Shown: positions 9,401 through 63,569 of the stretch, one piece after another | Numbering within the stretch: the stretch's first letter is position 1 | Layout of the letters: the number at the start of each line of letters is the position of its first letter | DNA from: Felis catus | Lineage: Eukaryota | Direction of reading: 5' to 3' | NCBI RefSeq assembly: GCF_018350175.1 | Contig: NC_058368.1 | Coordinates: 112,346,001 to 112,410,000, forward strand | DNA length: 64,000 bases | Notes under the pieces: generated by a model | The model's database searches: none | What the model saw: only the letters and a program-made list of their open reading frames with translations | What the model was told of the DNA's origin: nothing | Translations under genes and position numbers: made by a program

Positions 9401-9574
<174 letters not shown>

Positions 9575-20810: not shown

Positions 20811-20860
20811 TGTGATGTCTGTATGTTTTATGCTTGTAGTGATGTCTCTGGGACTTTGTC

Positions 20861-22662: not shown

Positions 22663-22674
22663 GCCGCCATCTTG
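22663..22674 (-). promoter_or_regulatory. YY1 site at the L1 5' end; CpG-rich internal promoter spans ~21760-22680
   Basis: CAAGATGGCGGC on the minus strand, about 10 nt from the element start, as in mammalian L1 promoters. Confidence 0.85.

Positions 22675-30247: not shown

Positions 30248-30301
<54 letters not shown>
30248..30301. repeat. (AT)n microsatellite, ~27 units
   Basis: Direct reading. Confidence 0.97.
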
Positions 30302-30303
<2 letters not shown>

Positions 30304-30429
30304 TATTTCCTTGTGAAGATTTGCAACCTGTCCTGATGTAGGAACGGAGTCATATGCTACTTTTCTTTCTCTAACATGGTTAAATGCTATTTGAACACAA
30401 CTATGCTTAATTTATAATGTATTTGTTGA

Positions 30430-30640
30430 GGGGCACTCTTGGTGGCTCTGTTGGTTAAGGTTTAACTTCAGCTCACATGATGATCTTGTGGATCATGGGG
30501 TCCAGTTCAGAGCCTGGACCCTGCTTCACATTCCGTGTCTCCGTCTCTCTGTCGCTCTGTGCCCCTCCCCAACTCGTGCTCTGTCTCTCTCTCAAAAAAT
30601 AACTAAACATTAAAAATAAAACAAAATAAAATAAAAGTAA
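30430..30640 (+). mobile_element. Diverged Can-SINE
   Basis: ggggcactcttggtggctctgttggttaag head, (CT)n tract and A-rich tail. Confidence 0.8.
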
Positions 30641-42108: not shown

Positions 42109-42987
42109 GGTTTGATCATGAGGTCTTCTCAAAATGCCTCTGTGAGCAGATTTGTGCCACGCTCCTCCACCCAGCTCAGAGCACCTTGGTGGCTTCATGG
42201 CACAGGTAGACTAATCTGTGTGATCTGGCCTCGGCCCACCCGCTTCTTTATTCCCACGCCACCCACTCCCCACTTCCACTCTGCACCCTTTTAGCCATCT
42301 GGATGACTTCTTCCTGTTTCTCTAGCATGCCACATTTAGTTCTGCCTCAGGACCTTTGCACTAGCTGTCTCCTCCATCTGGAAGGCTCTTCCCTCTGTCT
42401 CCCTTCTTTTGTCCTCAGAACTTGCTTTAAAGGACACAGGTCTTTCCCGACCCTTATCACTCTCTATTCATTTTCATTCCTTTAACAACTGCTGCCATTT
42501 GATTTGTTGGTTGGTTGTTATCTGTCCCCTCATTAAATTCGAACTCCTTGCGGGTAGGAATCTTACTCGTCCTGTTCACTGCTGTATCCTCAGTATCTAA
42601 AAGAATACCTGGCATAGAGTAGATGCTCAGTAAATATTTATCCACTACAGAAACCGAACACATGCAGGCCGTGTGGGTGCCTTCTGGGGAAGGCTGTTCT
42701 CTCTGCTCTTTAGCGAAGTCTTGAGCTGACTTATTTATTCGGTGTAAGCAGTCGCTGCTGAGCACTGAGCATGCGCTCTGCATAGGCTGCGTCTGAGGTG
42801 AGGAGTGGACATGGCGTGCAGACTGATGGAGAGACAGCCACACAGACGAATACGGGACAGTCTGGAAAATGCTGTGACCCAGCTGGGGAAGCAGAGAAGG
42901 CACGATCTTCTGCTGACCCTCAGGCAGCAAAGTCCGGGGCAGCCACAGAGAAAGATGCTTTGGGATGCGTGCATTTCCCCCTCTTGC
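42109..42987 (+). repeat. Inverted duplication, arm A (879 bp; includes an L2 3'-end remnant at ~42230-42640)
   Basis: Reverse complement of 62455-63333; mirrored ORFs in the track (42457..42930 vs 62512..62985). Confidence 0.98.
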
Positions 42988-43069
42988 TTAATGTCTCATT
43001 CGAAACTTTAGTAAGTGCCATTGAGGACAAGTGTGTGCTTCTCTTGTAGTGAATAACAAGGGAGTCTGG

Positions 43070-43600
43070 CCTAGCCTGCGAGTCAGGGAAGGATTCCTTG
43101 AGGAAGTAATGGCCTGAGCCAAGATCTGCAAGAAGGGCAGGGGATCAGAGGGGGCTGGTGCTGGGGCAATGCCAAGGGGGAGAGAAGAGGAGGGCACCCC
43201 AGGTGCAGGCATAGCTCGCGCCAGTGCCCTGCACAGAGATGACCTGGGTGTCCTGCAGGGGCACGAGAAGGGAATGTGGGGTGAGAGGAGCCCACAGGTG
43301 GGGCTTGGGGCAGGTGTGCAGAAGTCCAGCGCACAAACTTCATGGACCACATGAGAGACTTCGGTGTCTATCTCAGAATAAAATGGGAAACCACTGAAGG
43401 TGTTTATAAGCAGAATAAGAGCCATGATCGAATTTGTGTTTGGGAAGAGGACTCTGGCTGCGGGGAGGGAGACTGAGAATGACAAAGAGGGACTGAGAAA
43501 GGGTCGCAGGGAGGACATCGCAGTATCAGTGGCTGGGTCTTCACTGGCAGTGGAAGTGGAGAGAAGTGGACAAAGTTTGGAGACATTTCGGAGGGAATAC
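43070..43600 (-). mobile_element. Ancient L2 remnant
   Basis: gtcagggaaggattccttgaggaagt, gggaaaccactgaagg and gcagtggaagtggagagaagtgg L2-type motifs. Confidence 0.6.
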
Positions 43601-44077
43601 AAGTAGCACGATAACAGGAACACTCGTGTGCTGTGCTGTCTGTCACTGCCCAGCACAAAGTACCCGGGTGATTACCAGTAGTGCCATCAGCCCTTCGGAT
43701 TAGCCCAGTACGTCATTCAGAGGGGTCGGTCCCCAGACAGGCCTTCCGGAGTGACCGCAGGGAAGACGTTTCCATTCGATGCAGCTCAGGTGTGTGAAGA
43801 AGGTGGCAGGTGAACCCGGGCCCTCTGCACGTGGCCCACTCTGGGGTAACCAGGAGCTGCTGGTTCTTAGCACCCACACCGAGGAGTAGAGGAAAAGCTG
43901 CCTCCTGTCTTCTCTGTGTGCTCCAGCTGCCCTTCCTCTGTGTCCCCTGTTGTCAGCTAACTCCATGTGTTCCCTCACACGGAAGAGGGAACTTCTGATT
44001 CGCCCAGACATGGAGGCTGCATGAGCCAGGAAAGGGTTAAGTCAGCCAAGTACATTTTCTGAGTCAGGTTGCCCTTC

Positions 44078-44078
<1 letters not shown>

Positions 44079-44113
<35 letters not shown>
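44079..44113. repeat. C35 homopolymer
   Basis: 35 uninterrupted C. Confidence 0.95.
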
Positions 44114-44114
<1 letters not shown>

Positions 44115-46156
44115 CTCCTTCTCTTCCATTTTATGTTTCCTCTCTCTTCGTCATATTCCTATGCAGCTTTTTCCTCTGGATTTCCCATCCGTGGGGAGAA
44201 CAAATGACATGCTAATGCGTTCAATTGGTATCATATGTGGTCGCTTGGAGAGGAAAGTGCCAGAATGGGTAAGGGAAGTTGTGGGGCAGTGGAAAGTATC
44301 CATGGCAATGTTACCCTGTTTAGCAAACATATTAAGAAAATTTGTGCTGAGATAATCAAAGCATAACTTAGAGGTACCCTTTGGCAGGTCCACATTCAAA
44401 ACTGGGATTTTCCACTACTTGGCTACAAAGCAGAAATCATTTTCATACAGTGTGTGTCCTGAACGTTGTAGCAGTGGTGAGGTGGGCTTTCTGTCACTAT
44501 GGATAATGATCAAAGTGTCCTGTGACTTTGGGGTGTATCCGGATCTCACAACAGTATCAAATTTCATGTAAGACAAGTCCACACACCTCTCCCCCCACCC
44601 TCTGCAGTGAGATGACCTCTGGTCATGCCTGTTTCACCAAATAATTTTTATTGTTGTTTTCTTACAGATTCTGTAAGTATGTGGAAAGGGAAATATTTAC
44701 ACGAAATACCAAAAATGCTTACTCAGTGCAATCAGCATTTATAAGGAGTTGAGTCACTGGCCATCACTCACCATTGAGTGTGCCCTCACTGCTACTCATT
44801 GAAGTCCTCCTTGTTCACGCAGCAGGTGTCCCTGCATGCCTTGGTGCATTCTGAATTGCCTAGAGTTTATGTCTTGTCTAAACTTGGCCCAAGAAAAAAG
44901 ATTAAAAGCAGCAGCGTGTCGCAGTTTTCTGGAGGAAAATGGAAGGTCTGGTTTTGGGGATGGCTTTGAAATTGGCATACATTCCATTTTCTTGCACATA
45001 AAGTCCGTCAGAACAAATTAGGTGTTGGCCTGTGGGTCCTCTGGGAATTGAATCAAATTCGTCCACCAAGGAACTATGCAAAGCTCTGCGAAAATCCAAA
45101 AGCACCTAAGTTTGGGGGCTTCTAAGAAGTGGACATTGAAATCAACCAGCTTCCAATGGCAAACACAGTATGTGACCAGTCGGTAACAATTTGTTTAGTT
45201 ACAGCAGCAAATAACGTGCTGTCCTTGCTAAGTGCTGATCATTCACTGTCGAGAGGACATTTTCCTGGTAGGCTAAGTTAGACATAACCTAGGTAGTGGT
45301 ATGTATATATTATTAAATGCTGTATAAACATAAAAATTGCCCATTATCCAATTATCCTAAGGGCCATAGATAATATTTTGTTGTATGTTCTTAGGGTCTG
45401 TGTATCTCTGTGTGATGCAAACTACCCTATGCTGATGCAAACAACCTGGAAATCTGTTTCGTTGGGTTGTCACGTGGCCACTGAACTTCGCACAGGGTTT
45501 AGTATACAGTAATTATCCAATGAATTTTTGAAACAGCAAAGTGATAAGGGCAGTTTAGTCTAGCTTTGGTACCGAATCTTAATAGGCATGCCCAAGCCCC
45601 TCTATAAAACACATTGATAACATCTACTCTGTTTTCGGTGATCCTTGTAATTACCTCAGCCAGAAAAGTGATTTTTGGATTTATGGCATTCTTGTCATTC
45701 TTGTCTGTCATTCGTTCTGCCAGACTGAACCCAGGCTACTCTGACATGACACAGGCCACGTGCTGGGTCCGTGGCTGCCTTTCCAAGCCCAGAGTCTTTC
45801 CATGGAAGAACGCTAACAGCAAGGCCTCTGCGCCCAGGTGCTCGGCACGGGGAGGGAAGCATGTCAGTGTCTCCCCATCCCAAACCCCAGCATGTACTCA
45901 GGGAGCACTTGTTACAGTTCCACTTCTTCTGGCTGCCCCCCCCCCTCCTCTCCCCTGAAGTCACAGAGAGCCACCCAGCTGAAAATGGTGTGTTAAGTTA
46001 TTCAGAACACCTAACCTAAGGTGAGATCAACAACCTTATTCTGTCTCAGAAAATCTAACTGAGTCATCGTTTGGGTTAAGTCCTTTTCCAATCCATTTAT
46101 CCACCAGACCTCCCACATTGAATGTTGTAGCTTTACTTCTTCATTTTTTAAGTTAT

Positions 46157-46360
46157 GAGAAAGAAAAAGGAGAAGGAAGAGAAGAAGAGGAGGGGGGGGG
46201 AAGGAGGAGGAGGGGTGGGGAGGAGAGGAGGAGGAAGGGGAAGGGGAGAAGGAGGAAGACGAGGAGGAGGAAGACGGGAAGGTGGAGAATAGGAGGAGGA
46301 GGAGGAGGAGGAGGAGGAGGAGGAGGAGGAGGAGGGGAAGGCAGAGAAGAAGAAGGAGAC
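46157..46360. repeat. Polypurine tract with (GGA)n
   Basis: About 200 nt almost entirely A/G, including ~14 GGA units at ~46291-46334. Confidence 0.95.
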
Positions 46361-47439
46361 TATCTGGACGATGGCTCTGTGATGCTTGCTCCACTTGGTA
46401 ACTTGAAAGGGAAAGATAAAAACACGGGAGCCGGAGTCTACATGAAGCAGAATGTCACCTACTTTGTCTCAGAAGCATAGGCATCTTCAGAAGGACATTC
46501 TGCCTCCCTAGAAAATCATTTCTAGAAAATTGTCCAAAACAAAGACTTCAGATGAAACAAGCTCTAAGGAGTCAACACCAACAAAGCAGATGATTTCAAA
46601 AACCTTTGAAATGTACACAGCCACAGATCTCTTTTCTGTCATTGGTGGGGTTTCAGGTTTAGCTCACATTTACCCACCTCCCTGCAAGCAAAAGTTTCTG
46701 AGGCTGAAAGCCCATGGGAGATGCACTCTGTCAGCCGGCAAAAGGAGAAAGGGCACGAGACCACCCCGACAGAGAAGATACTGGAAACTTTCTCCCCAGT
46801 GGCTCACTCCCCTCCTGCCCAGAAATGCCTACCCCCTCGGCTGTCTGACTCATCCGAGAGCAGACAGTAAGCAATCAGGTTCGTTGATTACAAATCAGCC
46901 TATCTGGAATATAAATATTCCTTTCAAGTAGCTATATTACTCTATCTCTGAAGCATGTAGGAAGTCTGCTCCGTGTCATTTTTCCATTAAAATGTAGTCC
47001 TAACAGAATTCCAGCTACCCAGTAACATCTCCAAATCTTCACATGATTTATATGATTTGTGGCCAACTCCATGTATAAACACAGATAGAGTCCAAGAGGG
47101 ATCTCATTCTAAACATGAGTAAAAGGGGAAAGATGGGTACTTAATTACATCATCAAACGTTTTAAATCTTAGAACTTCATATTGTCAACCACACTTATCT
47201 CACATCATTGAATCACAAGAGTGCTGTAGATATATATGTTCCTTGTAATTCTGAATATTTTACATAATTTATTTCTATGATAACTGCAGGCAAGAGAGAA
47301 GGAACAGATTCCATTAACTCTGTTCTATGGCTGATGGAAGTCAGTGGTCACACCACAAATCAAGTAACCAGCACCCTACCCTTTTGACTCTCAGCTTACT
47401 TTTTTGGTTGATAGTCTCTGCTCAAAGTCATAAAAGTAT

Positions 47440-47655
47440 ATTTAAAAATTTTTTTTTGAAATATTTATTCATTTTTGAGAGACAGAGCGTGAGTGGGGGA
47501 GGGGCAGAGAGAGAGGGAGACACAGAATCGGAAGCAGGCTCCAGGCTCTGAACTGTCAGCACAGAATCCGATGCGGGGCTCAAAACTCACGAACTGTGAG
47601 ATCATGACCTGAGCCCAAGTCAGATGCTTAACAGACTGAGCCACCCAGGCACCTC
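47440..47655 (-). mobile_element. Can-SINE
   Basis: SINE body; aagtat direct repeats at the flanks. Confidence 0.9.
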
Positions 47656-49849
47656 GTAAGTATTTGAAATAAAAATAAGGAGAAAATGTATGGCCACCTT
47701 TGATTGAGGGGAAGGGCAATGCCACTCAAAGGTCAGCAAGTTCCTGTGTCAGAGTGGCCCTCTTCTTTGGCTGGGAATTTTGTGTTAAGTTACTTTGGCT
47801 GCTGTGTGGGGAGTAGACTACACCCTCAGGGTGCACAGGTAGGGGTGGGGAGGCTGTGCCACTGTTCCGGGTGAGAGACGGTAATAGCTTGGGCTTGGGT
47901 GATGGGGTGTTCGCGCTGTGAATGAAGAGCAGGAGGCTAGTTCAAGGGAGATGTGGAAGGCCAACCAAGTGGGCTTTCTGATCACGTATGGAAGGTGAGG
48001 GAACGAGAAGATGGAAAGAAGAGTGGCACTCAGGTTCCTGCATGGATGGTCTGACCATTCATTAAAATAGGAAGTTCAGGAAGAGGCCAGGGGTCCAATC
48101 AAAGAGTTTCGTCTTTAACAGACTGACAGGAGATTGAGGCTTGGAGCGGAGAGGTCACTGGGAAAGCAGACCGGGCATGTGGGCCTCACCCGCCTCACAC
48201 CTGCTCCCATCTGTGTGATAGGTTAGTGTTCTGTGTAAATGGGTTTTGGAGAAAATAGTCTATAACCACGGAAGATACTTTTAGAAACACCAGCTGTAGG
48301 CAATGGGGAGTCACTGAAGGATTTCAATCAGGGAAATGCATTGAATGGAATTGTGTTTGCATCTGCCTTAGATCAGGAGAAAGGAGAGGGAAGAGGTTTG
48401 AATCATGGCAGGGGGCCCTCACCAGCTGTTTAGATTTGGGCAAATTAGCCAAACCCTCTGGGCCCCAGGTTCTTCGTCAGCAAAGTGGACCTAGGACTTC
48501 CTTCCTCCCAGGGTTGTTATGAGAATTGTAATTAAAATGCCTAGGATAAGAAATACTTAATACGTGTTGGTTCTCTTGTCTGTGACTAAGCACCTATTGG
48601 CGCAATTCAGCAAGTGGGGTGGCTGGAGGTGATTCTAGCAGTCTCCCCAGGGAGGGGTGGGCAGAGTCCAGACTGCTGGGTTAAGTGGGTCAGGGCCACG
48701 CCGATGAGTGTGGGGTTGGAGGCCCGGATTCAAGGTGGTGCTGTTGATCGTGTTCAGGGGGAGAAGAGGAGCATTTGGAGTTTGGTCAGGTAGAGGGGCC
48801 ATCTGATAGCCATTTGTATAAACAGGCCCCGTGATCCTACTAGACCCTAAAGCCACTTTGCACTTGTCTTTCCTCATCAGCACCCACTCTTCCTCTTTTA
48901 GTCTCTGCTGCTGCCACTAACCACTGCTCAGCTCACGGCCTTCTTCCTCTTCCCAGTGCCCACGACCTCCTGAGACTCTCCACTTCTCACAAGCCACCAG
49001 CCCATGTGTAAGTGCTCTCTGTTTTAACCCCAGGACTTGGTTTCTGCCTCTCTACAGTTAGGGGTGCTAGTTGCTCAGGTGTGAGCTCTTTGCTTCCAAA
49101 GATGGGGATGTTTTCTTTTTACCTGGTTCTCTCCATGTCTAGAACCCTGCTGCCGTCTCCTTGCTTTCCAGCCACTGCCTTTGCTGTACCTCATCTCGTG
49201 GGCAGTATCCTGAGTGACAGTGGGAAGTGGGGTAGTGGCTGGCTAGCCACAGGCCGCACCAGGCAGCAGGACCTGGGCAATGGCCCTGTGACCCTTGATC
49301 CTGGTGAGGATGCCTTTCATTGGTGGGAAACCGCATGCCCCCTGTTCAGACTGTAATCAGGCTGGTGGCCGGGACGTGTGGATTCAGAGCAACATGGTAT
49401 GTCCTGAAAGCTCTTCCCTCTGAGCCATGGTGAGGCCTCTGTATGGCTTACCCGCTGCATGGCTTACCCGCTGCATGGCATGGGGTAAGCTTGGGGGTGG
49501 CCAGACCATCTTTGAACCTCCAAATCTGGGCTTCTCTTTCAGAACACCTGGCCCCTCTTTGTTTTCCTCTCTCTCCTTTTTCTGGGCTTTTGTTGCTGAG
49601 CGGACACTGTTTTAAGTCGGTTAGTTCACCTTATAAGCCACATTTTGGTCTCAGCCTAGGAGCTCATCTGTCTGGGAGAGATGGCACTATCAGCATTCTA
49701 GGGGCTGGCTGCCTCCAACATGAGTCCGCAGGCATTTTCCTGGGCTCACCCTTTACAAAGCATGTGCACGTCTCCATTTCAGAATGGTATGGCCTATGAC
49801 GTTGCCAACAAAGTCTTAGTTGATTACGAATATACAAAGATTTTTTCTT

Positions 49850-50465
49850 TTTAAGTCAGTCTTGAGGCATGATTTACATATCATAAAATGCATCCATTTT
49901 ATTTATCTTTTAAATGTTTTATTGATTTTTGAGATAGAGAGCGTGAGCAGGAGAGGGACAGAGAGAGAGGAGGACAGAGGATCTGCGCTGACAGCAGTGA
50001 CCCTGATGCAGGGCTCAAATTCACACACCATGAGATCATGACCAAAGCCGAAGTCAGGGGCTCAACCCACTGAGTCACCCAGGCGCCCCCCAAGATGCAT
50101 CCATTTTAAAAATACAATTGGATGACTTTTGACAAATGTATACTTCCCTGTAGCCAGCACCACAATCAAAATACAGAACATTTCCATCACCCCACATGGT
50201 TCTTTGTGCCCCTTGGCAGTCATCCCCCTGACCCCTAGCCCCAGGCAGCTACATATCTACTTTCTGTCAGTACAGATTAGTTTTGCGTTTTCTAGATTTT
50301 TGTACACATAAATCATACAGTATGTTTACTTTCCTGTCTTATGGTCAGCATAATGTCTTTGAGATTCATCCATATGATAGCATGTTATTAGTAACTTATC
50401 CTTGCTTTAGCTGAGCAGTATTCCATTGTATGGAAATCACACGATTGGTTCATCTCTTTACCTGT
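49850..50465 (-). mobile_element. Old L1 3' UTR fragment with nested Can-SINE (~49900-50090)
   Basis: SINE TSD atgcatccatttta on both sides; L1M-type 3' end sequence. Confidence 0.8.
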
Positions 50466-51218
50466 GTGTCCAGTGTAGGGGGTATTATGACTACAAATGC
50501 CTTTTCTGATTCTGGATGTAGCACCTGGAGTAACCATGGCTGTTGCCCTTAGAGAGCTTGAAATCTTGGCAGGAAGAGGCTTAAATGATGCGATATTCGT
50601 GGAGGTGTATTATTGGTTGTAATCAACTGCAGGGATGCTTAACAGTTGTACCAGGTGTGATAGAATAGTCAGAGAGTGAGGGAGTACAGTGGGAGGGAGT
50701 CACCGTTATTTTATCTGGGGGGGGGGTGGTATGTTAAAGCTCCATCAAGTGAATGGGGACTAAGGAGCAAGGGGCAGGGGAAGTGCTCCTGGGAGTAGAC
50801 AGGAGTGGAACACAGGAGGGAGCAATCCTGGCAGACGGGAAGGGCCATGCGGATTCCATCAGACCTGGAATAGAGAAGTTGTGTTCAGTGAGAGGAAGAG
50901 AAAAGGGCTGGAAGGCCTTGAACACTGGGATTAGAAGCTCAGAATTGATGTCCCAGGCAAAAAGAATGGAGGTGCTGTAGGTTTTGAGCAGGGAAGGGCA
51001 AAAGCTGTATTTTTGAAAGATTCCCATCATTCGTGGGCAGATTAGCTTGAATGGAGCAAAGAATGCAAGAATAGAGATAACAAACAGTAGGTGTTCATTT
51101 GAGCTCATTTTCTGGCCAGCTTCAAGGGTGGCCTCCCCAGCTGCAAAACATGCCTGGTCATAGAGTGGGGCCGAGACACAATGGGGGTGGGAAGTCGCAC
51201 AACATACCTCTGTCATGG

Positions 51219-51856
51219 TGTATTAGTTTTCTGTCGGTGCATAACAATTACTTCAAAATCAGTGGCTGAAACAACATGTTTTGTTTTGTTTTGTTTTGTT
51301 TTGTTTTGTTTTAATCGCACGGTTCTCTGAGTCAGTAGTTGGGACATAGGTTAAGTAGAGTTCTCAGCTCATGGTCTCATCAGGCTAAAATCAAGGTGTT
51401 GGCTGAGGCTGTGTTCTCATTTGGAGCTCAGGATCCTCTTCCAAGTTTATTCAGGGTGTTGACACAGTTCGAGTCCTGCACTTGTAGGGTTGAGGTCCCC
51501 ACTTCCTTGCTGATCTAGGGGCTGCCCTCAGATTCCAGCCAGGTGGCCCCCTCCATAGGTCATTCACAACATGGCTGTTTGCTTTCTTCCAGACCAACAG
51601 GAGAGAGCCTACTGTCACTTTATCTCTTTTAAGGGCATTCCAGATTAAGTCAGCTTCACCCAGGATAACCTCCCTTTCGGTTGACTCCAGGGATCTCAAT
51701 TACATCTGTAGAACCCCTTTTTGCCATGTAAAGTAATGTAATCATTGGAGTGATATCATATTTATAGATCCCACTCATGCTGAAGGGGAGGAGATCAGGC
51801 AGGATGTACACCAAGGAGTGGGTGGCTGGGAGCCATCTTCGAATTCTGCCTACCAC
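51219..51856. mobile_element. MLT1-type MaLR solo LTR
   Basis: tgtattagttttct...cataacaatta start and aattctgcctaccaca end (TG...CA). Confidence 0.8.
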
Positions 51857-52129
51857 ACGTGGTTTGGTTTCTCTTTTGACTCCCCGTTTCCTTTACCTGT
51901 AAGCGAGGAGTTGTTGGCTAGGTCCTCTCAGAGGTTCTGCTCTGTGTTTTCCCTTCCTTTATGATTATGGACTCAAGGTGGAAGCTCTGTTACCAATCCT
52001 CTTCTCCAAAATGTGACTGAAAGGTTGTGGTGACCTGCTGGGCAAAGATGGCTGACTGTCATTGATAAGGGTGTGTGCTGAGGGAGAGGACAGCCAAGTG
52101 ACAACAGGTGGGTACGTTGTGGAATGGGT

Positions 52130-52502
52130 GGTTGGTGTAGTTGTTAGGGCTGTCCACACATACACCCTTTCCTCTCCTTCTGAGCAGCACATGGTAGGAC
52201 TGCTTACTTTGACCAATGGAATGTGAGCAGGTGTGATGTCTATAATTCTGAGTGGGAGTTTTCAGAGCCAGTGTGTGTGTTTTATGTCGCTATTTTTTCC
52301 TCTGCCACAGTGACTAATAAGATTTGAGACAGTGGCTGCTCCTTTAGCCTGGGTCCCTAGGTGAGGGTATGCAGAGCAAAGCCCCAGCCAACCCACCTTG
52401 GACTGTGGCATAAACAAAAAATAAACCTTTGTTGTTTAAAGATCCTGAGATTTGGGGTTGTTTGTTACTGCAGCATAACCTAGCCTATCCCTGGCTGATA
52501 CA
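52130..52502 (+). mobile_element. Old MLT1-type MaLR LTR remnant
   Basis: aataaacctttgttgtttaa...ttgttactgcagcataacctagcctatcc...gataca end. Confidence 0.7.
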
Positions 52503-52544
52503 AAGGACAGTATCAATGTTAATCTTGCTGCCACCTTCTCTCTC

Positions 52545-53325
52545 TTTTAATTGAAGCCTAATTAACCCACAATATTAGTTTCATTACAACATAATGATTC
52601 AATACTTGCATAATTTTATGACCACATGTGTCACCATACATGGTTATCAATTTTTTTCTCGTGATGAGAAATTTTAAGATCTATTCTCTTAGCAACTTTC
52701 AAATATGCGGTGTGGTATTAACTGTAGTTGGCATGCTGTATATGACATCCCCATGACTTATTTATTTTATAACTGGGAGTTTATAGATTTTTTAAATGTT
52801 TATTTATTTTTAAGAGAGACAGAGACAGAGTATGAACGGGGCAGGGGGGGGGGGGGCAGAAGAGAGGGAGACAGAATCCAAAGCAGGTTCCAGGCTCTGA
52901 GCTGTCAGCATAGAGCTTGACACAGGGCTTGAACCCATGAACTGCGAGATCATGACCTGAGCTGAAGTCAGAGGCTTAACTGAGTGAGCCACTCAGGAGC
53001 CCCGGGAGTTTACGGCTTTTAATGTGCTTCACCCATTTTGTATACCCTGTAAGGCCCCCTGTCTCTGGCAACCACCAGTCTATTTTGTGTATCTATGAAC
53101 TTGGTTTTGTTTTTTGTTTCTGTTTAGATTCCACGTGTAAGAGCAATCGTACAGTATTTGCCTTTCTCTGTCTTATTTCACTTAGTGTATTGCCCTCAAG
53201 TTTTATCCATGTTGCACATGGCAAGATTTCACTGTTTTTTATAGCTGAATAATGTTCCATTGTATCTGACTATAGCACATTTTCCTTATCCATTCATCTA
53301 TTGATGGACATTTAGGTTGTTGTCT
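52545..53325 (-). mobile_element. L1 3' end fragment with nested Can-SINE (~52785-53003)
   Basis: SINE flanked by gggagttta direct repeats within L1 3' UTR sequence. Confidence 0.8.
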
Positions 53326-56139
53326 ATGGAACTTCTCACCTTAGCCTGATCCATTTTCTTCTGTGAGATATAGCTGTAAGACCCAATCCAAAAACCTTCA
53401 TGAAAAGTGATGGTGTTGCTGTGTCGTCTTGTATTTTCTTTCTGTCATTCAAGCAGGACTACCCACCTGCTCACTGAGAAGATGCTTTCTCACACCCTGG
53501 GACCTTGGCCATTATGACAAATAAGCTATTTTTGTTTGAGAACAAATACGTGTAATTAGCACATTTGGGGAAAGCAGCCAGGCAGGTGCACCCTCTCCTG
53601 ATTTGGATGTGCTTGATGCAGTTTCCCTGTCCCCACTTTCTGAAAATCTCAATTACCGTGCAGTCCACACAGACCCTGGCTCTTTTCCTTTCCTACACCT
53701 GTAATTTGTCCGTCATGTTGACGACTTTATCATTCTTGTGTTTACAGACTTGCGTGTTGACTATGTCTCTCTCTTAGATCTCTCTTTTCTGCCACTTAAC
53801 TGTTTCTCTTTCCTGAGCATTTTGAAGGTCTGTCCCTTCTCTGACGTCTTGTCAAATGCTCCTTGTTTGCTTCCCTTCCTCTGAGGACTGTTTCCCCCTT
53901 TTCTTCGTAGACCTGCCTTTGCAACCCTCCACTAAGGGCTTTCTTCTCCTGCTCCCTCATATCTTAGGGCTTCAGGAGATGCCTCTCTACTGGGACTATC
54001 TACAAGCCTCCATCTGGCTCTCAAGACTGTTGTCCCTGCTACACAACTGCCTGATGGGGGGAAGCACAGGGCCTTATTGGACTGTCACACAGTGATCATA
54101 TACAACAATCCGGACTCCTCCCAAAGACAGCATAAATCATTGGTGACTGCAGGTGGAGATCCATGTGGGGCACATAGGCAGGGACCAGCCTCAAGTAAAG
54201 ACTGAAAATAGTTGCTGCTATGGGAAGAAATAAGGCACAAGAGCATGCCGTGGTGTCAGTTATGCTGTGGTGTAAAGAGGAGGGAAATAAAACAGCGAGA
54301 ATCTGGCAATTATAACAATGATAGCCAGTCGTTAACAAACACTTATAGTGTGCCAATTACTCTGTAGACACCTGCTATGGTTTATCTCCTGCATGATATT
54401 TCCTATGTGGTAACAGAAGTCTCATGCCCATCTGTCTGATGAGGAAATCAAGGCTCATGGCGTTTAGGTAGCTGGCCTAACGTAACGCAGCAAGTAAGCA
54501 GAGAGCTGGGATGAAATCCTGGACAGGACAGCTGGTTCCAGAGCCCATGCCCCTACCCAGGAAAGCATGGTGCCTCAAGGCAAGGGGAAGGAAGAGCCCC
54601 ACGTGCAGGATGGTTGTTTGTTGCCAGTGCTTATAATGATTCCCTTCACTGCAGGGTGCAAGGCCTGCTACCCACCGGCCCCTCCACCTTCCTTCCTAGC
54701 TCCTGTACACAATGCAAACTGAAGAAGCCCCAGTTTGAATTCTTCCCTTGCTGGTCCTAAGAGCCTAGAGCCGCGGGGTCCAGACCATGGGTTCAGGGGT
54801 CGACTTGCTTCCGCCTGAGGCAGTGCAAGATGGGCTTTGAGTTTACAGCTCAGCCAAGGCAGGCACCCACCCAGGGAGGTTGGACGGCCTTGCCTTTCAG
54901 AATAGGAGAGAATTGAATCATTGTTACATCAACTCCCCTGACACTTTCAAAACTATGGCCTCCCGCCCTCCTTCCTCTGCAGCTTTTCTCTGCCTATAAA
55001 ATGAAAAGCAGATTGCCTTGCCGGGGGGCTCCAAGCCGGCCCACATCGGAGGTGTGTGAGGAGGGGAAGCACAGCGTGCGAGGGCGTCTGGGCCATCTGC
55101 TTCTCATTGACCGCGGTGCCGCCATGGAACACAATGGGCCTGTGTGCAGCCTGCCCCCAGAGCGGCCGCAGCGGTGACCCTGGGCCTGCTGCCTGGCAGG
55201 CTGGGGAGTGGCCCCAGAGGCTGGGATCTGCTTTCCTAGAGTGTGGGGGTGGTTCCCCCTCATCTGACCATTTCTTCTTTCTTTTCTTCCTAGAAAGATG
55301 GCTTTCAGCTGTTTCCTCAAGACTCCTGGTAACCTCTTGAAAAAGCCGTATTTATTGTATGTGTGTTTTAACATTATAAATGTAATCTGCATTTGATGCA
55401 CAAAACCCAGAAGAGTAAAAAAGAAGCGAAAACTCGTGACAGTCCCACTACCAAGGGTTAGTATGTGTTCTGCCAGTCTATTTTCCGTGAATGTTTTTCA
55501 GCATTGTTTTTAAAGACATTAATGACCTAATTATACACTTCTGATTTAGGCATCGTTCTAAGTACTTTGCCTGGATGCTCTCAGGCTGCATATAGTACAG
55601 CCCTGTTACGTCAACACTTTTATTACCACCATTTTTACAAATGAAGGCGCTGCAGTTTAGAAGGGGCAGGAAATCTGCCCAGGACTTCCCAAGACGACGG
55701 TGGGGCCAGGATTCAGTAGCAGGCTGGGCTCTGCAGATTCCACAGCTCCAAACCACCTCACGATACACATCTGTGTGGGATACAGAGTAATGTGTGTCCA
55801 GTTTTTCACTGAACAACAAATTGGGACTAATTTCTCATTCTTTTGATAGCCCTCTACACATGGGTTTTACAGTTGCCTGTATCCCGCTGCACAGACTTAT
55901 CTTAACCTTTGTAGCCACTTCCCTGGTTTTGGATTGTTCCAGGTTTTGCCGTTGTGATCCTGAGATGATCACTCAGTACAGATTTTTTAAGCCCATCTCC
56001 CATGATTTGATGGTAGTGGAATTCTGCGTGAATGGACACACACACCTGAAAGAATTTTGAAAGATTAGCAAATCACCTTTAAGAAAAATTATACCTGCAA
56101 CATTCGGTATTATAATCTTCTATCAAACTGGCAAGCATT

Positions 56140-56351
56140 TTTATTTTATTATTTTTTTAATGTTTGTTTGTTTAATTAATTAATTAATTTTTGGGAGAGG
56201 AGAGAAAAGCAAGCCAGGAAGGGGCAGAGAAAGAGGGAGAGAGAAATCCCAGCAGGCTCTCTGCTGTCAGCATGGAGCCCAACGCGGGGCTCAAACTCAT
56301 GAACCATGAGATCATTACCTGAGCTAAAACCAAGAGCCACCCAGGCGCCCC
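56140..56351 (-). mobile_element. Can-SINE with internal deletion
   Basis: Jumps from aaccaagag to ccacccaggcgcccc; agcatttt direct repeats. Confidence 0.85.
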
Positions 56352-57980
56352 AGCATTTTAAAAAATTTATATCTAACTTTTAAACTTTTAAGTTATTTTT
56401 TTAGTGATCAAGCAATGAACTTTCTTATTTATTCATTGTCAATTTTAATTTATTCTTTTGTAAATTTACTGCTTATGTTCACCTAGTTTTCTACTGTGTG
56501 TGTGATTCATTTTTAGATTGACTTGCAGAAACTTATTAGATTAAGGATATTAATCCTCTGCTTTCTGGATTGCAAATAGGTATCTCAGTTTGTCTTGCTT
56601 TTAGTCAGTTTCATCCTAAGATAAAATTCAATTCGGTTTACCTTAGGATGTTTTTGCATTTTCGTTAGAGGCTGATTTATTGATCTTTTTCTTTGTGCCT
56701 GCTTCCTTTACTTTTTTTTTTAAACTTTCTTCTGTCTCCTCAGCAATATGACATAAACATTCATGTTGAATGTGGATTTTATCCTGTTGCTCAAAATTAA
56801 ACTTGCTACAACATGAACTAAAGCACTGAGATGTCAGAGTGGGTGACTCAGTGATAGAAGAGAGTGAAATGAAACTGTACCAGCTAATTACCCAGGAAAA
56901 CACAACCCAATAACACATCGATCCTGAAACGGAGATGTAGACTGACACAGTTATGTTGTTTTATCTTATCACACAACTACAGGAGAAAGAAATGTTTATG
57001 TGTTTATTTTTTGGTATGATTTGTCAAACTCCTAAGGAAGATATCACCATTTCTTACCTTATGAATGGAATTCATATGTATTTTCTTTAAATATCAGAAA
57101 GTGTTGCTTAATTTTCTTCATAATCATTATAAAGCTAACATTTTATGACTTGAAGCACTTTTTAGCATAGAACTGCACCCAGTTTCTACATATTCAGAGT
57201 TAAGATATCATCTATATTCTGCCACAGAGCTCAGAAGCAAGGAGTGCCATCCTGATCCCAGCTTCAAGTCCCCAGTCCAGATGCCTCCATGCCTTCTCAA
57301 TTTCTTCTCCATGGAAAGGAATAGAAATCTTATAGGTCAACAAGTATGGGGTGGATTCCAATTTGCAAAACCTTTATAGATGGCCTCATTTACTTATATA
57401 CATGGGGAAAGGTATCCAAAAGACAGGAAGAAGCAGTAAAATATCTACATGAGTGATCTACCATACTGTTGAGAAATACCACTGAATGCCAGTGTTACTC
57501 CAATGTTACATTTCCTTGGCCTCTCTTTTTTTCCTTCCTTTAATCTATTCCAGACACGCTCATTGGCAAAACCCAACCAGAAGCCAGAGCAGAGAGCCTG
57601 GGCACTGTGTCCTATAGAGGTTACAGATCCAAGTTCACAGACCAAGGTCGAGAGACGTGGAGAATGGGTCTCATGGCAAGCAGAAGCAGAGAGAATTAGC
57701 CAGGATAAAGACGAGAAGAAAATTAAAAATCCTTCGGAAGTCCACCCTCCAGAGGTAACTTTGATTAACACTTCGGTCAGTTTGCAATGAGTTTGTCATA
57801 CGGGTTACTTTTATACAGTTGAGATCTACTACATAATTGCTTTTGAAAGCATAGTTAACCAGGAAACCGAGGTCCAAATCAAAAACTGTTTTAAGAAGGG
57901 TTTGATGACAGATAATCATTGTATCTGAGTGGTTTATTAACTTTCCAAATATGTTAAAACATGCAGATGCACGCGCATGT

Positions 57981-57981
<1 letters not shown>

Positions 57982-58015
<34 letters not shown>
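57982..58015. repeat. (CA)n microsatellite
   Basis: Direct reading. Confidence 0.95.
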
Positions 58016-58021
<6 letters not shown>

Positions 58022-58940
58022 CCCAAGTCATTTAATGGGAGAATTTTTTCCCCAAAACTATTGCTCTAGCTTCTTGAAATGTAAATGCTCTTTTTTCTTA
58101 CACTGTGAGACCAACTATTCTTTCATGGACAAAATTAAGATTTTTCGGTTTATTAATTTTTTTAAATTGCAGTATCCTGAGTATATGATCAGAGATAACA
58201 AATGAATGACACATTTACTGCCATATTCCATTGGATTCCCCAAGACAGACATCACTCACTGATCCCCTCCTTCTTTCCTCTGGAGTGTCCATGTGGCTCG
58301 GTTTCCTCCCCAGCACAACAATCCTCAGTACAGTAAGTCTCATAAATTGAGGCCTATTCCTGGCCATCAAGTTCAGCAATCATTAAGAATAGAAGTATAC
58401 TACCCGATAGTTTCCGTGGCCATCAACCATGGCAGAAGATTCTTCCTAGATGTGAAGCGAGAGATACAGCACCAAAAAATCCATTTCTTAGCCTCAGCAA
58501 AACTGCGCAAGCTGAAAAACAGCTGAGGAAAATAAGTGAAGAGATGAGGTAAAGTGGCAGAACTCTCCACCAAAGCAACCCAACTGGATTTTGAGTTTGG
58601 GATCTCCAGAAAAGAAGAAGTGCATATCCACAACCCCCCATTCTCACATTCTTGGAGTTCATGATCTCAGCCACCAGCCTAAGTCTGTTTTGTAAGCTTA
58701 TGTGTCCAGGAATGTCTATTGCCCTTGCTCCGAAGACTGCAAAGTGATGGGGTCCCCACTTTTTCCCTCCAGAACCCTCTGAAGGCTGCTCCACAGAGAG
58801 TGGTAAAAGAAGTCTGAGGCCAATCAATATTTTATGTTCTTTATAAGAAGTTGTTTTTTCTTCCTTGATGCCTATAATGTAAAAGTAAATTATTCTTAAT
58901 ATTCAAATATTTTGCTAGAATGTGTTTTAAATGAAGCCCC

Positions 58941-59500
58941 TGTGTGATGGGTCCTGAAGGCCATCCATCACTAGGTTTGGAAATTCACCAAAATGACTCC
59001 CAGAACTCTGCCTGAAGTATCCTTGTGGCTAAGATATATTATAGCAAAGTCATAGGAATATGCAGCTAGCTTATAAGGGGAAAGGCACAAGCAAGTCTGG
59101 CGGAATATAGGCTTCTTTTTCCTCTCTCCCTTCTCTTAGGGGTCACAGAGAGCTCACTCTTCCCCTGGCAAGGAAAACGGAACAACATATGTGTGATGTG
59201 TCTGCCCAGGGAAGCCCATTAGAGACTCCATTCTCAACTTTTTTATTGGCGTCTGATCATATAGGCCCTCCAGCTAGCGTGGACCAAAATTCCAGACTCC
59301 CAGAAGGAAAGCAGGTGTCAGTGTATACCCCAGCATTTGTAAAAACAGTTCAGGCACTGTGAGCCACTCTTTCCAGTTAGGCGAAGTTTTCTGTGAGTGT
59401 AGGGAACTAGTTACCAGCCAAGTTCCCAGACACCAGCCAGCATGGCTTCCTAAGGGCAGTGGCTTCAGTTGCTTTATTAACTATTTTCTGCAGAGCCCTC
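58941..59500. mobile_element. MER21-like LTR remnant
   Basis: gaccaaaattccagactcccagaaggaaagcaggtgt motif characteristic of MER21-type LTRs. Confidence 0.6.
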
Positions 59501-59672
59501 TTTCAGTTTATTTTTCCTTAGAATGTGATGAGCCTCTTCAAATTGCATACTAAATAAAGTTGTCTTTAATTCTTTCATCATTGCTTTGGTTCTGGTTGTA
59601 CAAGTTTCTTCCTTAAGACATTCTATAATTCTTGAATTTGGTGAGATAGTCAAGGAGGACACAACCTCTCCT

Positions 59673-59779
59673 CTTCTTTCCTTTCCTTTCCTTTCCTTTC
59701 CTTTCCTTTCCTTTCCTTTCCTTTCCTTTCTTCCCTTCCTTCTTTCCTCCTTTCCCTTTCTTTCCTTTCATTTTCTGTT

Positions 59780-59867
<88 letters not shown>

Positions 59868-60073
59868 TCCTTCCTTTCCTTCCTTCCTTTCCTGAGAGAG
59901 AGCACAAAGTGAGTAGGGGCAGAGAGAGAGAGGGAGAGAGAGAATCTCAAGCAGGCTCCCCATTCTGTCTGCCTGGAGCCCTACTCAGGGCTCAAACTCT
60001 CAAACTCTGAGATCATGACCTGAGCCAAAATCAAGAGTTGGACGCTCAACCAGCTGAGCCACTCAGGCACCCC
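59673..60073 (-). mobile_element. Can-SINE whose tail is expanded into a ~215-bp (TTTCC)n/(TTTC)n microsatellite
   Basis: SINE body 59891-60073 preceded by the pyrimidine repeat at 59673-59890. Confidence 0.9.
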
Positions 60074-62454
60074 TCTTCCTTTTTATTCCCATCACTTTGC
60101 CTGTCTTCTCTGCATTCTCTTCTATTTCCATGCTTGTCCTCCATGTTACTCGTTCATGGTTCTATGGTCTCAGCTCTGCTTCCTGCACCCCTAATGCAGG
60201 GTTGGGAGGTAGGTTTTTGTCTGGTATAGTATTAAAAACCTCTAAATTGCAAACCTGAGTGCTTTTTCCTCAGATGTTATTTTCGTGTTGTTGCTTCTCC
60301 CCCTCCAGCCTTTCTCCACAGTGAGAAGTCTATCTCGATCCATTACTTTCCATAAGAGAGGTCGTGGGGGCTTAGGCTTATTGCTGCCCCCGTCATTGGG
60401 GGTGGTGTCTGTCAAAAGTCCTTTCCAGGAGTTGAGTCATAGATTGTGGTGCAACTTCCCGGTCTTGCTCCTAGTGACCATCAGGTAGCATTTACTGAGT
60501 ATCTGTTAACTGAAATCCTTCTTCTCCTGCCCCGCTGGATAGCTCTCTGACGCAGTGGAGACATGGAGAATGTAGAAAGAACGGTGCCCTCGTGTGCCTG
60601 CCTAGGGGCTGTGCCATCTGCAGGCTGTGACTGTCGTGTCATATCTGTGAAGACTCCCGTCCTGGGCTGCTGTGGAGCCTCATTCTTCCCCACCCCCGTT
60701 TCCCAGGACATGAAGAGAGGGGTGCCCATGGACGCAGCACTCTGGATGGTGTCCTGATATTTCGGACAGGTCAGCCCTGTGGTTCTGGTTTTAGGGATCT
60801 TGGCTCATGGAATGAGAGGTCCTGACGTGGCACTTTTAATCCAGTTCGTTGCCTGGCATTTGTTTGAATATTGATCCTAACTCGCTGAATGATGTTTTTA
60901 CTGTTTCCAATGTTTCCAGTCTTAGGTATTTTCATGAGAAGTTGGGAAGGGCTTGTTAGGGAGCTATTAACCAAGCATCATTTAAAAACTCGAGTTCTAA
61001 GGAAGCTTCTAATTAAGGAGCTATCTGGGCTCACAAAGAATAAAGCGCTGGAAGCAGCCAACAAAGATTAGAGTCTCATTAAGGGGCTAAGACAGGTACA
61101 TGTGGAAAATAACCCACAATCCCAGACAGTGTATTTTGATGGGTGCTCTGGGAGTACAGCAGCCTGGGACTCGGGCACTCCGGCTTCTCCTTCCTGCCTC
61201 CAGCATGGACTTGCTGTGTGACCTCGGACAAGGCAGGGCTCCCTTCTGGAACTCTCTTGCCTTGTTTACAAATGAGGGAATTGGTCTAGAGAGTTCCAGT
61301 ATGCCTCCAGCTCCAACATTCTTCATCTTTCTCAGCTGTTGTGATTCAGTGGGAATTCTGTAGAAAGGAGGGATCGTCTGCCCTTGGACTGAGGGATCAC
61401 CTCTAAAGGCCAAAGAAGCAGAAACTACAGACCCCTCCCTGAGTCCTGCCTCCATGCTGGGAGTGCCTGCATACCTCCAGGGCTGCTCAACTCCATGTCT
61501 CTTGCTTGTCTCTTTGTCTCCTAGATTTCCTTACGCATAATGGCCTGTAAACGATATGAGCATGAAGTTTACAAAGGTCTTGTCTGTTTGAATCATCCTG
61601 CCTGTGTGCATGTATGTGTTCAGTGTAGCAGAAAATGGATGTCAGAGCCTTTTTAAAAGGGAAAAGTCCATTCTCCCTTTTATAATTGATTCATAATTTA
61701 GCCCTAAGGAGTTGGGTGTTGCTTCCTTCTGACAATAAGCCATGACCCTTTTGTTAGGCCAAGTTTAGACAAGAGGTCTAAGGCTCGAGTGAGTAACTTC
61801 TGATACATCAGGGTGTGCGGAGACCTCGGGACCTGGCCTGGATCCTCCTCTGCTCCAGGTAGAGTTTCTTCCTGTGTTCAGAATTCCATATTCTCCGTGA
61901 GTGTCTGGCAGGCAGAGGTGAGTCAGCACCCATGGAGACAGCAGCCTGGCACGCTGCTGTCTGAAGAGGCTGGTCTTAGGTATGACTCCCCCAACCCTGC
62001 CCTGCCTTGGGTCGGTGAGATAAAGACCTGGGGCCTCAGGGACTGTCCTCCCCGTGGGGACACTGCTGCCTGGCTGTCCTCCTGAGCGGGAGGCCCTGCT
62101 TTCCTCCACTGTGTCTCATGTGAGAACTCCTCACCCCGCCACCCCCGTCCACCGCCAGGATAGGAGGGCAGGGAGCTAATTTAGCAGATTATAAGACACC
62201 ACCAAAACCAGGTACTCAGGTTGACGCAAAATCCTCATGCGGGGGATAAATAATCTAACTGGCTGTTGATCTGCAACCCAATAGAGAGATCATCGAAAGT
62301 GCTCCCTGGTAGTTGTGTTAGAGTTTCCCCTTCTTCTGAGACAAACTGCTCATACTGGTGCCATGCACCCATGGACACAGGTCTTTGCACCCATACTTGC
62401 AGGAGAGAGGAGAGTGGGGAGAACTGTTGTTATCATTAGTATCTGTGAAATGTT

Positions 62455-63333
62455 GCAAGAGGGGGAAACGCACGCATCCCAAAGGATCTTTCTCTGTGGC
62501 TGCCCCGGACTTTGCTGCCTGAGGGTCAGCAGAAGATCGTGCCTTCTCTGCTTCCCCAGCTGGGTCACAGCATTTTCCAGAGTGTCCCGTATTCGTCTGT
62601 GTGGCTGTCTCTCCATCAGTCTGCACGCCATGTCCACTCCTCACCTCAGACGCAGCCTATGCAGAGCACATGCTCAGTGCTCAGCAGCAACTGCTTACAC
62701 CGAATAAATAAGTCAGCTCAAGACTTCGCTAAAGAGCAGAGAGAACAGCCTTCCCCAGAAGGCACCCACACGGCCTGCATGTGTTCGGTTTCTGTAGTGG
62801 ATAAATATTTACTGAGCATCTACTCTATGCCAGGTATTCTTTTAGATACTGAGGATACAGCAGTGAACAGGACGAGTAAGATTCCTACCCGCAAGGAGTT
62901 CGAATTTAATGAGGGGACAGATAACAACCAACCAACAAATCAAATGGCAGCAGTTGTTAAAGGAATGAAAATGAATAGAGAGTGATAAGGGTCGGGAAAG
63001 ACCTGTGTCCTTTAAAGCGAGTTCTGAGGACAAAAGAAGGGAGACAGAGGGAAGAGCCTTCCAGATGGAGGAGACAGCTAGTGCAAAGGTCCTGAGGCAG
63101 AACTAAACGTGGCATGCTAGAGAAACAGGAAGAAGTCATCCAGATGGCTAAAAGGGTGCAGAGTGGAAGTGGGGAGTGGGTGGCGTGGGAATAAAGAAGC
63201 GGGTGGGCCGAGGCCAGATCACCTGGATTAGTCTACCTGTGCCATGAAGCCACTAAGGTGCTCTAAGCAGGGTGGGGGAGAGTGGCACAAATCTGTTCAT
63301 GGAGGCATTTTGAGAAGACCTCGTGATCAAACC
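62455..63333 (-). repeat. Inverted duplication, arm B (879 bp)
   Basis: Reverse complement of 42109-42987; about 19 substitutions and no indels by manual alignment. Confidence 0.98.
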
Positions 63334-63569
63334 AGGGTCTCATCCTTCTGTGGGGATGACCCTTCCACTGTCATGCTGCTTTTAAGGGAGGGACGTGACT
63401 TTCTGCTGCTCTTTCCTCACTTGCTTAGCCCTTCCGGTGCACGTTTGGGCCTGTAGAGGAGAGAGACTGGCTCTCAGGAGGACAGAAACCACAACTCCGG
63501 GCTTGAAAGCACTGAACAACTCCACCCTGGCCAGGGCTCTTTGGTTTTGTGTGTGTGTGTGTGGTTAGT

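Follow-up and report, generated by a model that had tools for sequence, protein, structure and literature searches.

The window considered here is the whole 64,000-nt stretch of Felis catus DNA that was analysed, numbered from its first nucleotide. It carries LECT2, whose product is a chemotactic factor of hepatic origin and also an amyloid protein, and two copies of an 879-nt sequence in opposite orientations, referred to below as the left and right arms (Table 1). One LECT2 coding exon on the minus strand matches human LECT2 chains; further exons lie at about positions 9500 and 117, and a start codon was read by eye at about 11078. Some 31 kb separate the gene from the left arm, and it points away from the duplication, which bears out the placement of the arms upstream of LECT2 by an earlier note on this DNA. 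The next gene on the far side is presumably TGFBI, judging from human synteny.

Table 1. Features of the inverted pair and its surroundings (window coordinates).
Feature	Positions	Strand	Description
LECT2 coding exon	7148–7291	−	Match to human LECT2 chains, E = 2e-22
Left arm	42109–42987	+	879 nt; 860/879 positions match the reverse complement of the right arm, 0 gaps
Right arm	62455–63333	−	879 nt; counterpart of the left arm
Diverged outer end, left arm	42109–42219	+	Partner 63223–63333; 12 differences in 111 nt (89% identity)
Homogenised core (putative)	42220–42987	+	Partner 62455–63222; 7 differences in 768 nt (99.1%)
Longest identical tract	42424–42752	+	329 nt; partner 62690–63018; likeliest crossover site
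Ancient interspersed-repeat remnant in arm	42110–42645	+	In-window family matches; ends set by eye
Non-repeat part of arm	42646–42987	+	55% G+C, CpG observed/expected 0.51
Spacer	42988–62454	.	19,467 nt between the arms; an arm-arm exchange would invert it
Second remnant of the arm's repeat family	42988–43660	−	Start of spacer; polarity opposite to that of the arm's remnant; seemingly cut at the inner end of the arm
Nested small inverted pair	44872–44889 (partner 61757–61774)	+ (partner −)	Within spacer; 18 nt identical
Right outer flank	63334–63430	+	Candidate for the 3′ tail that the remnant at 42988–43660 seems to lack; would mark the join as it stood before an inversion

The pair is the top-scoring inverted match of the window outside L1 sequence (BLAST bit score 1500), far above chance, and a search of the 64-kb window found the arm in two copies only. 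The coordinates, arm lengths, inverted orientation, absence of indels and spacer limits given in the earlier note are exact. Its description of one arm as the reverse complement of the other holds in that the inverted pair is real; the arms are nonetheless 97.84% identical, with 19 substitutions that it left unstated, and all 879 nt align without an indel. Past the arm ends there is no significant homology, whether outward (anchored test, p = 0.16) or inward (p = 0.29, each against 300 random controls), and all four flanks are dissimilar from one another. The left arm and its flanks are present in 20 of the 24 Felis catus runs listed (0.96–0.99 of sampled words), and nine of these 20 are not marked as a possible source.

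The marks of a young transposon, namely a target-site duplication, an A-tail or terminal inverted repeats, and a coding remnant, do not characterise the arm. The left arm has no target-site duplication of at least 6 nt; at the right arm there is none either, the single 6-mer found there lying at offset positions and at chance level. No A-tail or terminal repeat occurs in the arm sequence, and none of five open frames matched a Pfam family above the cut-off. These results agree with the earlier note, which had seen neither target-site duplication nor transposase and had judged the arm not to be a young transposon copy. A DNA-transposon-like identity for the adjoining sequence at 41980–42108 was an impression gained by eye and could not be demonstrated (p 0.4–0.76).

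The first part of the arm is the remnant of an ancient interspersed repeat, with matches at 43316–43154 (33 bits, reached by 0 of 200 controls) and at 50966–50747 (28 bits, reached by 1 of 200). These two other sites in the window support the ancient repeat described in the earlier note; the name given there, L2, is probably right for this 3′ part. The remaining part, described as approximately 350 nt of unique sequence, matches nothing in the window significantly except the other arm, and is unique on that scale. It has no Rfam match and no stable RNA fold, and 42560–42987 folds no better than shuffled sequences (z = 0.68).

The 19 differences are unevenly placed along the arms. A concentration of 12 of them within a terminal stretch of 111 nt has a probability of 2e-5 for any 111-nt stretch (200,000 permutations), and the load of differences in the outer end departs from that in the core (Fisher p = 2e-7, or 1e-5 with CpG sites excluded). 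The outer end has no CpG common to both arms, one that is lost one-sidedly and two TG/CA pairs. In the core, both arms retain 18 CpGs, a further five are lost one-sidedly and there is no TG/CA pair. CpG-type sites hold 10 of the 19 differing positions, and such a spectrum is what genuine germ-line mutation of methylated DNA produces. CpG transitions account for five of the seven core differences; per site, core CpGs have a 39-fold higher rate of change than the remaining core positions (5/46 vs 2/722) and are therefore probably methylated.

The claim that the arm retains CpGs is borne out mildly, with an observed/expected ratio of 0.38–0.40 against 0.25 for the whole window, although 9% of 599 other 879-nt windows reach that level and the single-copy repeat adjoining the arm (0.32) is close to the arm's own repeat part (0.34). 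One 200-nt stretch barely satisfies loose island criteria (0.67, 53.5% G+C). This stretch was rejected as a sign of a promoter in view of the rapid change and probable methylation of the core CpGs. A gain in GC or CpG through biased conversion may be reflected in the 18 CpGs of the core against none in the outer end, but the neighbouring single-copy repeat has practically the same CpG ratio as the arm's repeat part.

Gene conversion between the arms is the probable cause of the step in divergence, a view drawn from the gradient within the genome of one haplotype of one species. The outer end is taken as the unconverted part of the duplication, recording its age and not a burst of change. At a rate of 0.86e-8 per generation and 3.8 years per generation, as given in 10.1101/2021.04.06.438608, the seven non-CpG differences among the 105 non-CpG positions of the outer end correspond to approximately 15 million years (range 6–34), an estimate that depends on those seven substitutions. 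Three outer sites can be polarised with a relative in the window, and at all three the right arm keeps the base of the relative (p = 0.25); derived-looking left-arm sites of this kind would fit damage to one copy better than equal ageing of both. The longest identical tract stands at the lower end of the 300–500 nt of uninterrupted identity quoted as the meiotic minimum in humans in PMC2583991. The earlier proposal that the arms form a usable substrate for homologous exchange is thus supported, the uneven divergence pointing to past exchange between them.

Whether the spacer stands in its ancestral order bears on the alternative in the earlier note, an inversion scar with duplicated breakpoints. 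For the remnant at the start of the spacer, the family match covers 43154–43316, and its reach to 42988 and the lack of a 3′ tail were judged by eye. If the right outer flank continued this repeat, the spacer would be inverted relative to the ancestor; the tests of such a continuation are suggestive only. Three continuations were compared, namely the left flank, the arm and the right outer flank. The last of these came top with all three scoring schemes, was alone in adding score as a continuation (5 bits), and alone gave p = 0.013 against three family members in the window. Pooled over five references the test gave p = 0.12, 0.06 and 0.28, the signal coming mainly from one reference (30301–30430) in a set chosen by eye; all 28 single-pair tests were non-significant (p > 0.07), and a geometrically impossible control equalled the score of the right flank (5.0 bits; p = 0.03 when compared with the arm tail). 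With single references, nhmmer failed the in-window repeat test. An early loose alignment had hinted at the opposite history, with the arm's own repeat continuing into the right flank; under tuned scoring that continuation gained 0.0 with all five references, and continuation into the left flank gained 1.8 with one and 0.0 with four. The window thus offers suggestive, non-significant support (pooled p 0.06–0.28) for a scar with duplicated breakpoints, and we lean slightly towards a spacer that runs the other way round from the ancestral order, be it since the duplication arose or through a later flip.

No gene was recognised in the spacer, and no Rfam family reached its gathering score there. 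An Rfam scan of 41900–64000 gave 11 sub-threshold matches, none in the arms, and the one tRNA-like match of the whole window lies inside a SINE, with none in the arms or spacer. Coding potential was pursued by comparing 5 of 110 stop-to-stop frames with Pfam, and two weak matches below the cut-off were discarded. The nested small inverted pair is accompanied by a weaker resemblance over about 75 nt. The suggestion that the segment regulates LECT2 is backed by no result. The literature search found no paper joining three of LECT2, TGFBI, inversion and inverted repeat, and LECT2 is unmentioned in the best 12 of 103 papers matching on enhancers. In a cat structural-variant study, the gene-level table has no LECT2 row (PMC7581003), and 12 other supplementary files contain no LECT2, TGFBI or FBXL21. 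Two arm motifs had no match in other mammals' host DNA in metagenomes, an uninformative result.

Structures of this kind are known, and the locus is a fresh instance of an ordinary class. Inversion substrates are recognised by arms more than 90% identical and at least about 650 nt long that flank single-copy DNA, and the cat arms have 879 nt at 97.8% identity; inverted duplication of non-repetitive DNA at both ends, the mark of a duplicated breakpoint, is present as the two copies in the window. Arms of human recombination-type inversions range from 654 nt to 24.2 kb (PMC6748972). Closest in form are HsInv0061 and HsInv0040 of the human InvFEST catalogue, with short inverted arms (654–756 nt) around single-copy DNA that likewise combine unique DNA with old repeat remnants, L2a in HsInv0061 (PMC6748972). 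Those arms, however, are 99.7–99.9% identical around spacers of 1.7–3.6 kb with both orientations proven, whereas the cat pair has a 19.5-kb spacer, a diverged outer end and one known orientation. HsInv0403 and HsInv0114 also have highly identical arms of L2 and other ancient repeats, which mediate inversion of 3–12 kb; at 2.7–4.3 kb these are three to five times as long as the cat arm, and recurrence has been shown there (PMC3961182, PMC6748972). In staggered-break inversions, as described by Ranz et al. (PMC1885836), and in HsInv0260, a non-repetitive inverted duplication of less than 2 kb without target-site duplication lies at one breakpoint, as it may here; the ancestral order is given there by an outgroup, whereas the cat pair is known from one genome. 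The Drosophila duplicates decay to approximately 88% identity (PMC1885836), whereas most of the cat arm has apparently been re-homogenised. HsInv0389 likewise has old inverted arms that have been re-homogenised and can invert the segment between them, a likeness that for the cat pair rests on a divergence step measured within one genome. In the FLNA-EMD case, conversion maintains the likeness of the arms throughout mammals. HsInv0389 (FLNA-EMD), named the mammalian recurrent inversion (PMC3961182), has 11.3-kb arms, is X-linked and encloses two genes; the cat arms are 0.9 kb and no gene was found between them.

The main idea of the earlier note, recurrent flip-flop driven by the arms with both orientations segregating in cats or alternating across felids, would be an addition to the explanation that we favour and not its opposite. 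In its favour, the arms are more than 90% identical and longer than the shortest (654 nt) among 24 human recombination-type inversions, 21 of which are recurrent (PMC6748972); they share 329 identical nt and show signs of arm-arm exchange; and HsInv0403, with arms of L2 and unique DNA, is recurrent. On the other side, the two of those 24 inversions with arms below 1 kb (HsInv0040, 755 nt, and HsInv0061, 654 nt with L2a) are both of single origin, the shortest recurrent human arm being 1,444 nt. The arm-to-spacer ratio, which correlates with inversion frequency (PMC6748972), is 0.045 in the cat, half the lowest value among the 21 recurrent inversions (HsInv0030, 0.093), and a single orientation is observed, in one haplotype. 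No result supports the recurrent flipping proposed earlier, and because both human inversions with such short arms arose once, it may be regarded as possible and not as the default; overall we think it unlikely. We are similarly doubtful of a young one-off inverted duplication, less than approximately 2 million years old, with or without inversion, in which the outer 111 nt came from error-prone synthesis or template switching and no conversion took place. The 99.1% identity of the core, the absence of indels over 879 nt and the three derived-looking left-arm sites would suit such an event, for which there are precedents in HsInv0260, a human inversion that arose once and carries a breakpoint duplication of 980 nt, and in the inverted duplications that, in a study of 1,019 human long-read genomes, form the commonest inversion class (277 events, median 284 nt; PMC12350158). 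Against it, 12 substitutions and not one indel in 111 nt are in our judgement a heavy burden for one repair event; five of those positions show CpG-type decay, two of them as TG/CA pairs, each of which takes two steps to form; and a third template is absent from the window.

That the arm is a low-copy or dispersed felid repeat, of which two copies landed here in opposite orientations, is improbable: the arm joins an ancient remnant to DNA of another kind and lacks a target-site duplication, A-tail, terminal repeat or protein family above the cut-off, although the copy count covers the 64-kb window alone. Least credible is an assembly artefact, in which a single locus was entered twice or both haplotypes were included. 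The independent run data cover the left arm alone, which leaves room for it, but the 19 differences have a CpG-type spectrum without indels, the 11% divergence of the outer ends is too large for two alleles, and the four flanks all differ.

The explanation that we favour, with slightly better than even confidence, is an old local inverted duplication in which gene conversion later made the core alike again. A single-locus stretch of DNA, comprising the ancient repeat remnant and adjacent sequence, would have been copied once, inverted and about 20 kb away, some 15 million years ago (6–34) as dated by the outer end. Two copies, sharp ends and no target-site duplication suggest a repair or replication event and not transposition. 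The arms would then have paired and exchanged sequence, the inner 768 nt being overwritten by conversion within the last 0.1–2 million years or so. The same pairing may resolve as a crossover and so invert the 19.5-kb spacer. A spacer inverted from birth would point to inversion by staggered breaks or template switching in which one breakpoint was duplicated; alternatively, it may have been inverted by a later flip. Flips are expected to be rare and the structure neutral.

Unless the spacer occurs in both orientations or affects regulation, the locus would be ordinary genome history. A far-reaching version, in which the arms predate living cats, have been held alike by conversion for more than 10 million years, and flip the 19.5-kb block repeatedly across felids, still segregating untagged by SNPs and moving regulatory DNA relative to LECT2 and the next gene, presumably TGFBI, strikes us as a long shot. 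If it were true, the FLNA-EMD system would have a small autosomal counterpart here that encloses no gene, with recurrence below the arm size at which the human catalogue shows it, and the nested 18-nt match might be a retained remnant of a once longer arm. Neither short reads nor SNP arrays detect inversions with short arms, and a polymorphic inversion at this locus would therefore have gone unnoticed as a variant close to LECT2. The abrupt change from an unconverted end of 111 nt to a converted core of 768 nt would constitute a built-in clock which, together with a few felid assemblies, could give the date of the duplication, counts of conversions and flips, and the minimum arm length for recurrence.

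The earlier note had described the two arms as an 879-bp inverted pair free of indels, and alignment of the left arm with the reverse complement of the right bears this out: the match spans 879 nt without gaps, at 97.84% identity with 19 substitutions. Only two copies of the arm are found within the window. Comparison across the window revealed no homology beyond any of the four arm ends, where similarity stops sharply, and an ungapped extension to 905 nt added nothing significant. The structure is a real inverted duplication, two-copy within the window. The setting is mammalian, with an exon at 7148-7291 matching human LECT2 (E = 2e-22) and SINEs that we take to be of felid type. LECT2 is oriented away from the duplication, and the left arm lies ~31 kb from its start codon, which was placed by eye.

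Features of the window considered in the text
Feature	Position	Strand	Description
Left arm	42109-42987		outer end 42109-42219; core 42220-42987
Right arm	62455-63333		outer end 63223-63333; core 62455-63222
Spacer	42988-62454		19,467 nt
Spacer-start repeat	42988-43660	-	second remnant of the arm's ancient family
Right outer flank	63334-63430		just beyond the right arm
Putative remnant at left arm	41980-42125
Mid-spacer segment	54990-55250		G+C-rich, several CpGs
Nested inverted match	44872-44889	+	18 identical nt
Nested inverted match, partner	61757-61774	-
Two L1 3' ends, inverted	4654-6008 and 16737-18071		95.2% over 1,358 nt
Near full-length L1	~16740-22690	-	ORF1- and ORF2-like frames, stop-interrupted
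Minisatellite	38833-40169		77-nt unit, 17.5 copies, 79% matches
Tandem duplication	27546-27703		81-nt, 94% matches
tRNA-Arg call	23685-23770	-	ARAGORN and Rfam (31.7 bits), within SINE

About 540 nt of the arm belongs to an ancient repeat family, presumably the 3' part of L2, whose other members in the window match at 33 and 28 bits; the remaining arm sequence has no significant match in the window. As previously proposed, no target-site duplication was found, nor did the arm sequence reveal a tail or terminal repeat. Searches of five open frames against Pfam yielded no family above cut-off, Rfam returned no family for the arm, RNA folding of the arm gave nothing unusual, and two arm motifs had no match in metagenome contigs. 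The proposal that the arm retains CpGs stands in part: CpG content is mildly raised, but its level is reached by 9% of equal windows, and the adjoining single-copy repeat has the same CpG ratio.

The main new fact is that the arms have diverged unevenly. The outer 111 nt carry 12 of the 19 differences and the inner 768 nt the other seven (clustering P = 2e-5; Fisher's test 2e-7, and 1e-5 once CpG sites are left out). In the outer end the arms share no CpG, a single CpG has been lost from one arm and two sites are TG/CA pairs; in the core they share 18, and five have been lost from one arm or the other. At the cat pedigree rate given in 10.1101/2021.04.06.438608 (0.86e-8 per generation, 3.8 years), non-CpG differences date the outer end to ~15 million years (6-34) and the core to 0.6 (0.1-2.2) million years; all sites give 26 and 2.0 million years. 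The simplest account, as read from one haplotype, would be an old duplication whose core was later overwritten by gene conversion that left out the outer end. Alternatively, the copy could be young and its outer end damaged or foreign. An in-window relative polarises three outer sites, and in each the left arm appears to carry the derived base, which slightly favours a young copy, although such a pattern has p = 0.25.

Presence of sampled words was compared for the left arm and its flanks (41600-43500) in sequencing runs of the same species, listed from 11 studies; 11 rows are marked as a possible source, and six studies have no such row. In 20 of the 24 runs listed, 0.96-0.99 of the 199 words were present. 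Because by our own count the left-specific outer end and junction account for ~7% of the words, other animals carry at least part of this sequence. Our literature search, which covered cat variant tables only partly, found no paper naming LECT2 and TGFBI together with an inversion or an inverted repeat, or either gene together with both. Among the cat variant papers (PMC7581003, PMC12789764 and PMC11216403), the searched tables of PMC7581003 have no LECT2 entry and those of PMC12789764 give totals only; the locus may be listed in other tables.

Four histories are possible, each predicting the neighbouring sequences before the event. The spacer-start repeat lies in opposite polarity to its relative in the arm (match at 43154-43316) and, judged by eye, reaches 42988 and lacks a tail. 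That tail would be expected in the left flank after a left insertion, in the arm if the junction is ancestral, and in the right outer flank if the spacer was inverted. With references picked by eye, the right outer flank alone gave p = 0.013 against three family members, and against five tails p = 0.009 for one and no significance for four. It adds 5 bits to the spacer-start alignment (p = 0.08), where the other two candidates add none and an impossible control scored as well. Under each of three scoring schemes it came out best of the three candidates (pooled p 0.12, 0.06 and 0.28). All 28 single-pair tests were non-significant, nhmmer gave no match, and one loose alignment hinted at the opposite history, which a later alignment did not repeat. 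On these comparisons the ancestral orientation of the spacer was, by a slight margin, probably the opposite one. The present order could date from the birth of the pair, through a staggered break or template switch, or from a later flip; the two routes end alike and are not distinguishable here. By eye, the remnant at the left arm resembles a short ancient DNA transposon and reaches the arm, perhaps overlapping it by a few bases; in-window tests did not show this identity. Should it run up to or into the arm, the left outer junction would be the ancestral one.

The longest identical tract between the arms, 329 nt, falls near the lower bound of the range given for human meiosis in PMC2583991 (300-500 nt). 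PMC6748972 describes 45 human inversions; 24 belong to the recombination type, and 21 of those are recurrent. HsInv0040 and HsInv0061, the only two of the 24 with arms below 1 kb, are both single-origin, and like the present arm theirs combine unique DNA and old repeats. Recurrent cases have arms of at least 1,444 nt and arm-to-spacer ratios from 0.093 upwards, twice the value of 0.045 found here. HsInv0260 took another route, having arisen once with a 980-nt duplication at its breakpoint (PMC6748972); Ranz et al. report breakpoint duplications for 17 of the 29 inversions they describe in Drosophila (PMC1885836), and L2-containing inversion arms of 2.7 and 4.3 kb are described in PMC3961182. 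Because of the tract length and these comparisons, occasional flips of the spacer are plausible; frequent recurrence is less so and appears unlikely, and a segment both old and recurrently flipping is more improbable still. In its workings the pair resembles inverted-repeat inversions with short arms, a likeness rather than membership of that class, since no second orientation was seen in the one haplotype.

The nested pair sits within the spacer, 1.9 kb from the left arm and 0.7 kb from the right; with ≤3 mismatches allowed, its 18-nt sequence matches nowhere else in the window. Its likeness extends ~75 nt (39 bits against a maximum of 23 in 258 controls); it may derive from a once longer duplication, from a short templated copying event or from a repeat that went unrecognised. 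The mid-spacer segment reached no more than a match below threshold in Rfam (15.5 of 70 bits) and had none in Pfam; if the spacer holds a regulatory element, this segment is its most likely site. The minisatellite, ~2 kb outside the left arm, has a unit that looks SINE-derived. The tRNA-Arg call was rejected as a gene, being most likely the tRNA-derived head of the SINE that contains it. The 5' end of the near full-length L1 is CpG-rich, with the highest CpG of the window. LECT2 exons 1-3, with the promoter, lie between the two inverted L1 3' ends, and exchange between these ends would break the gene.
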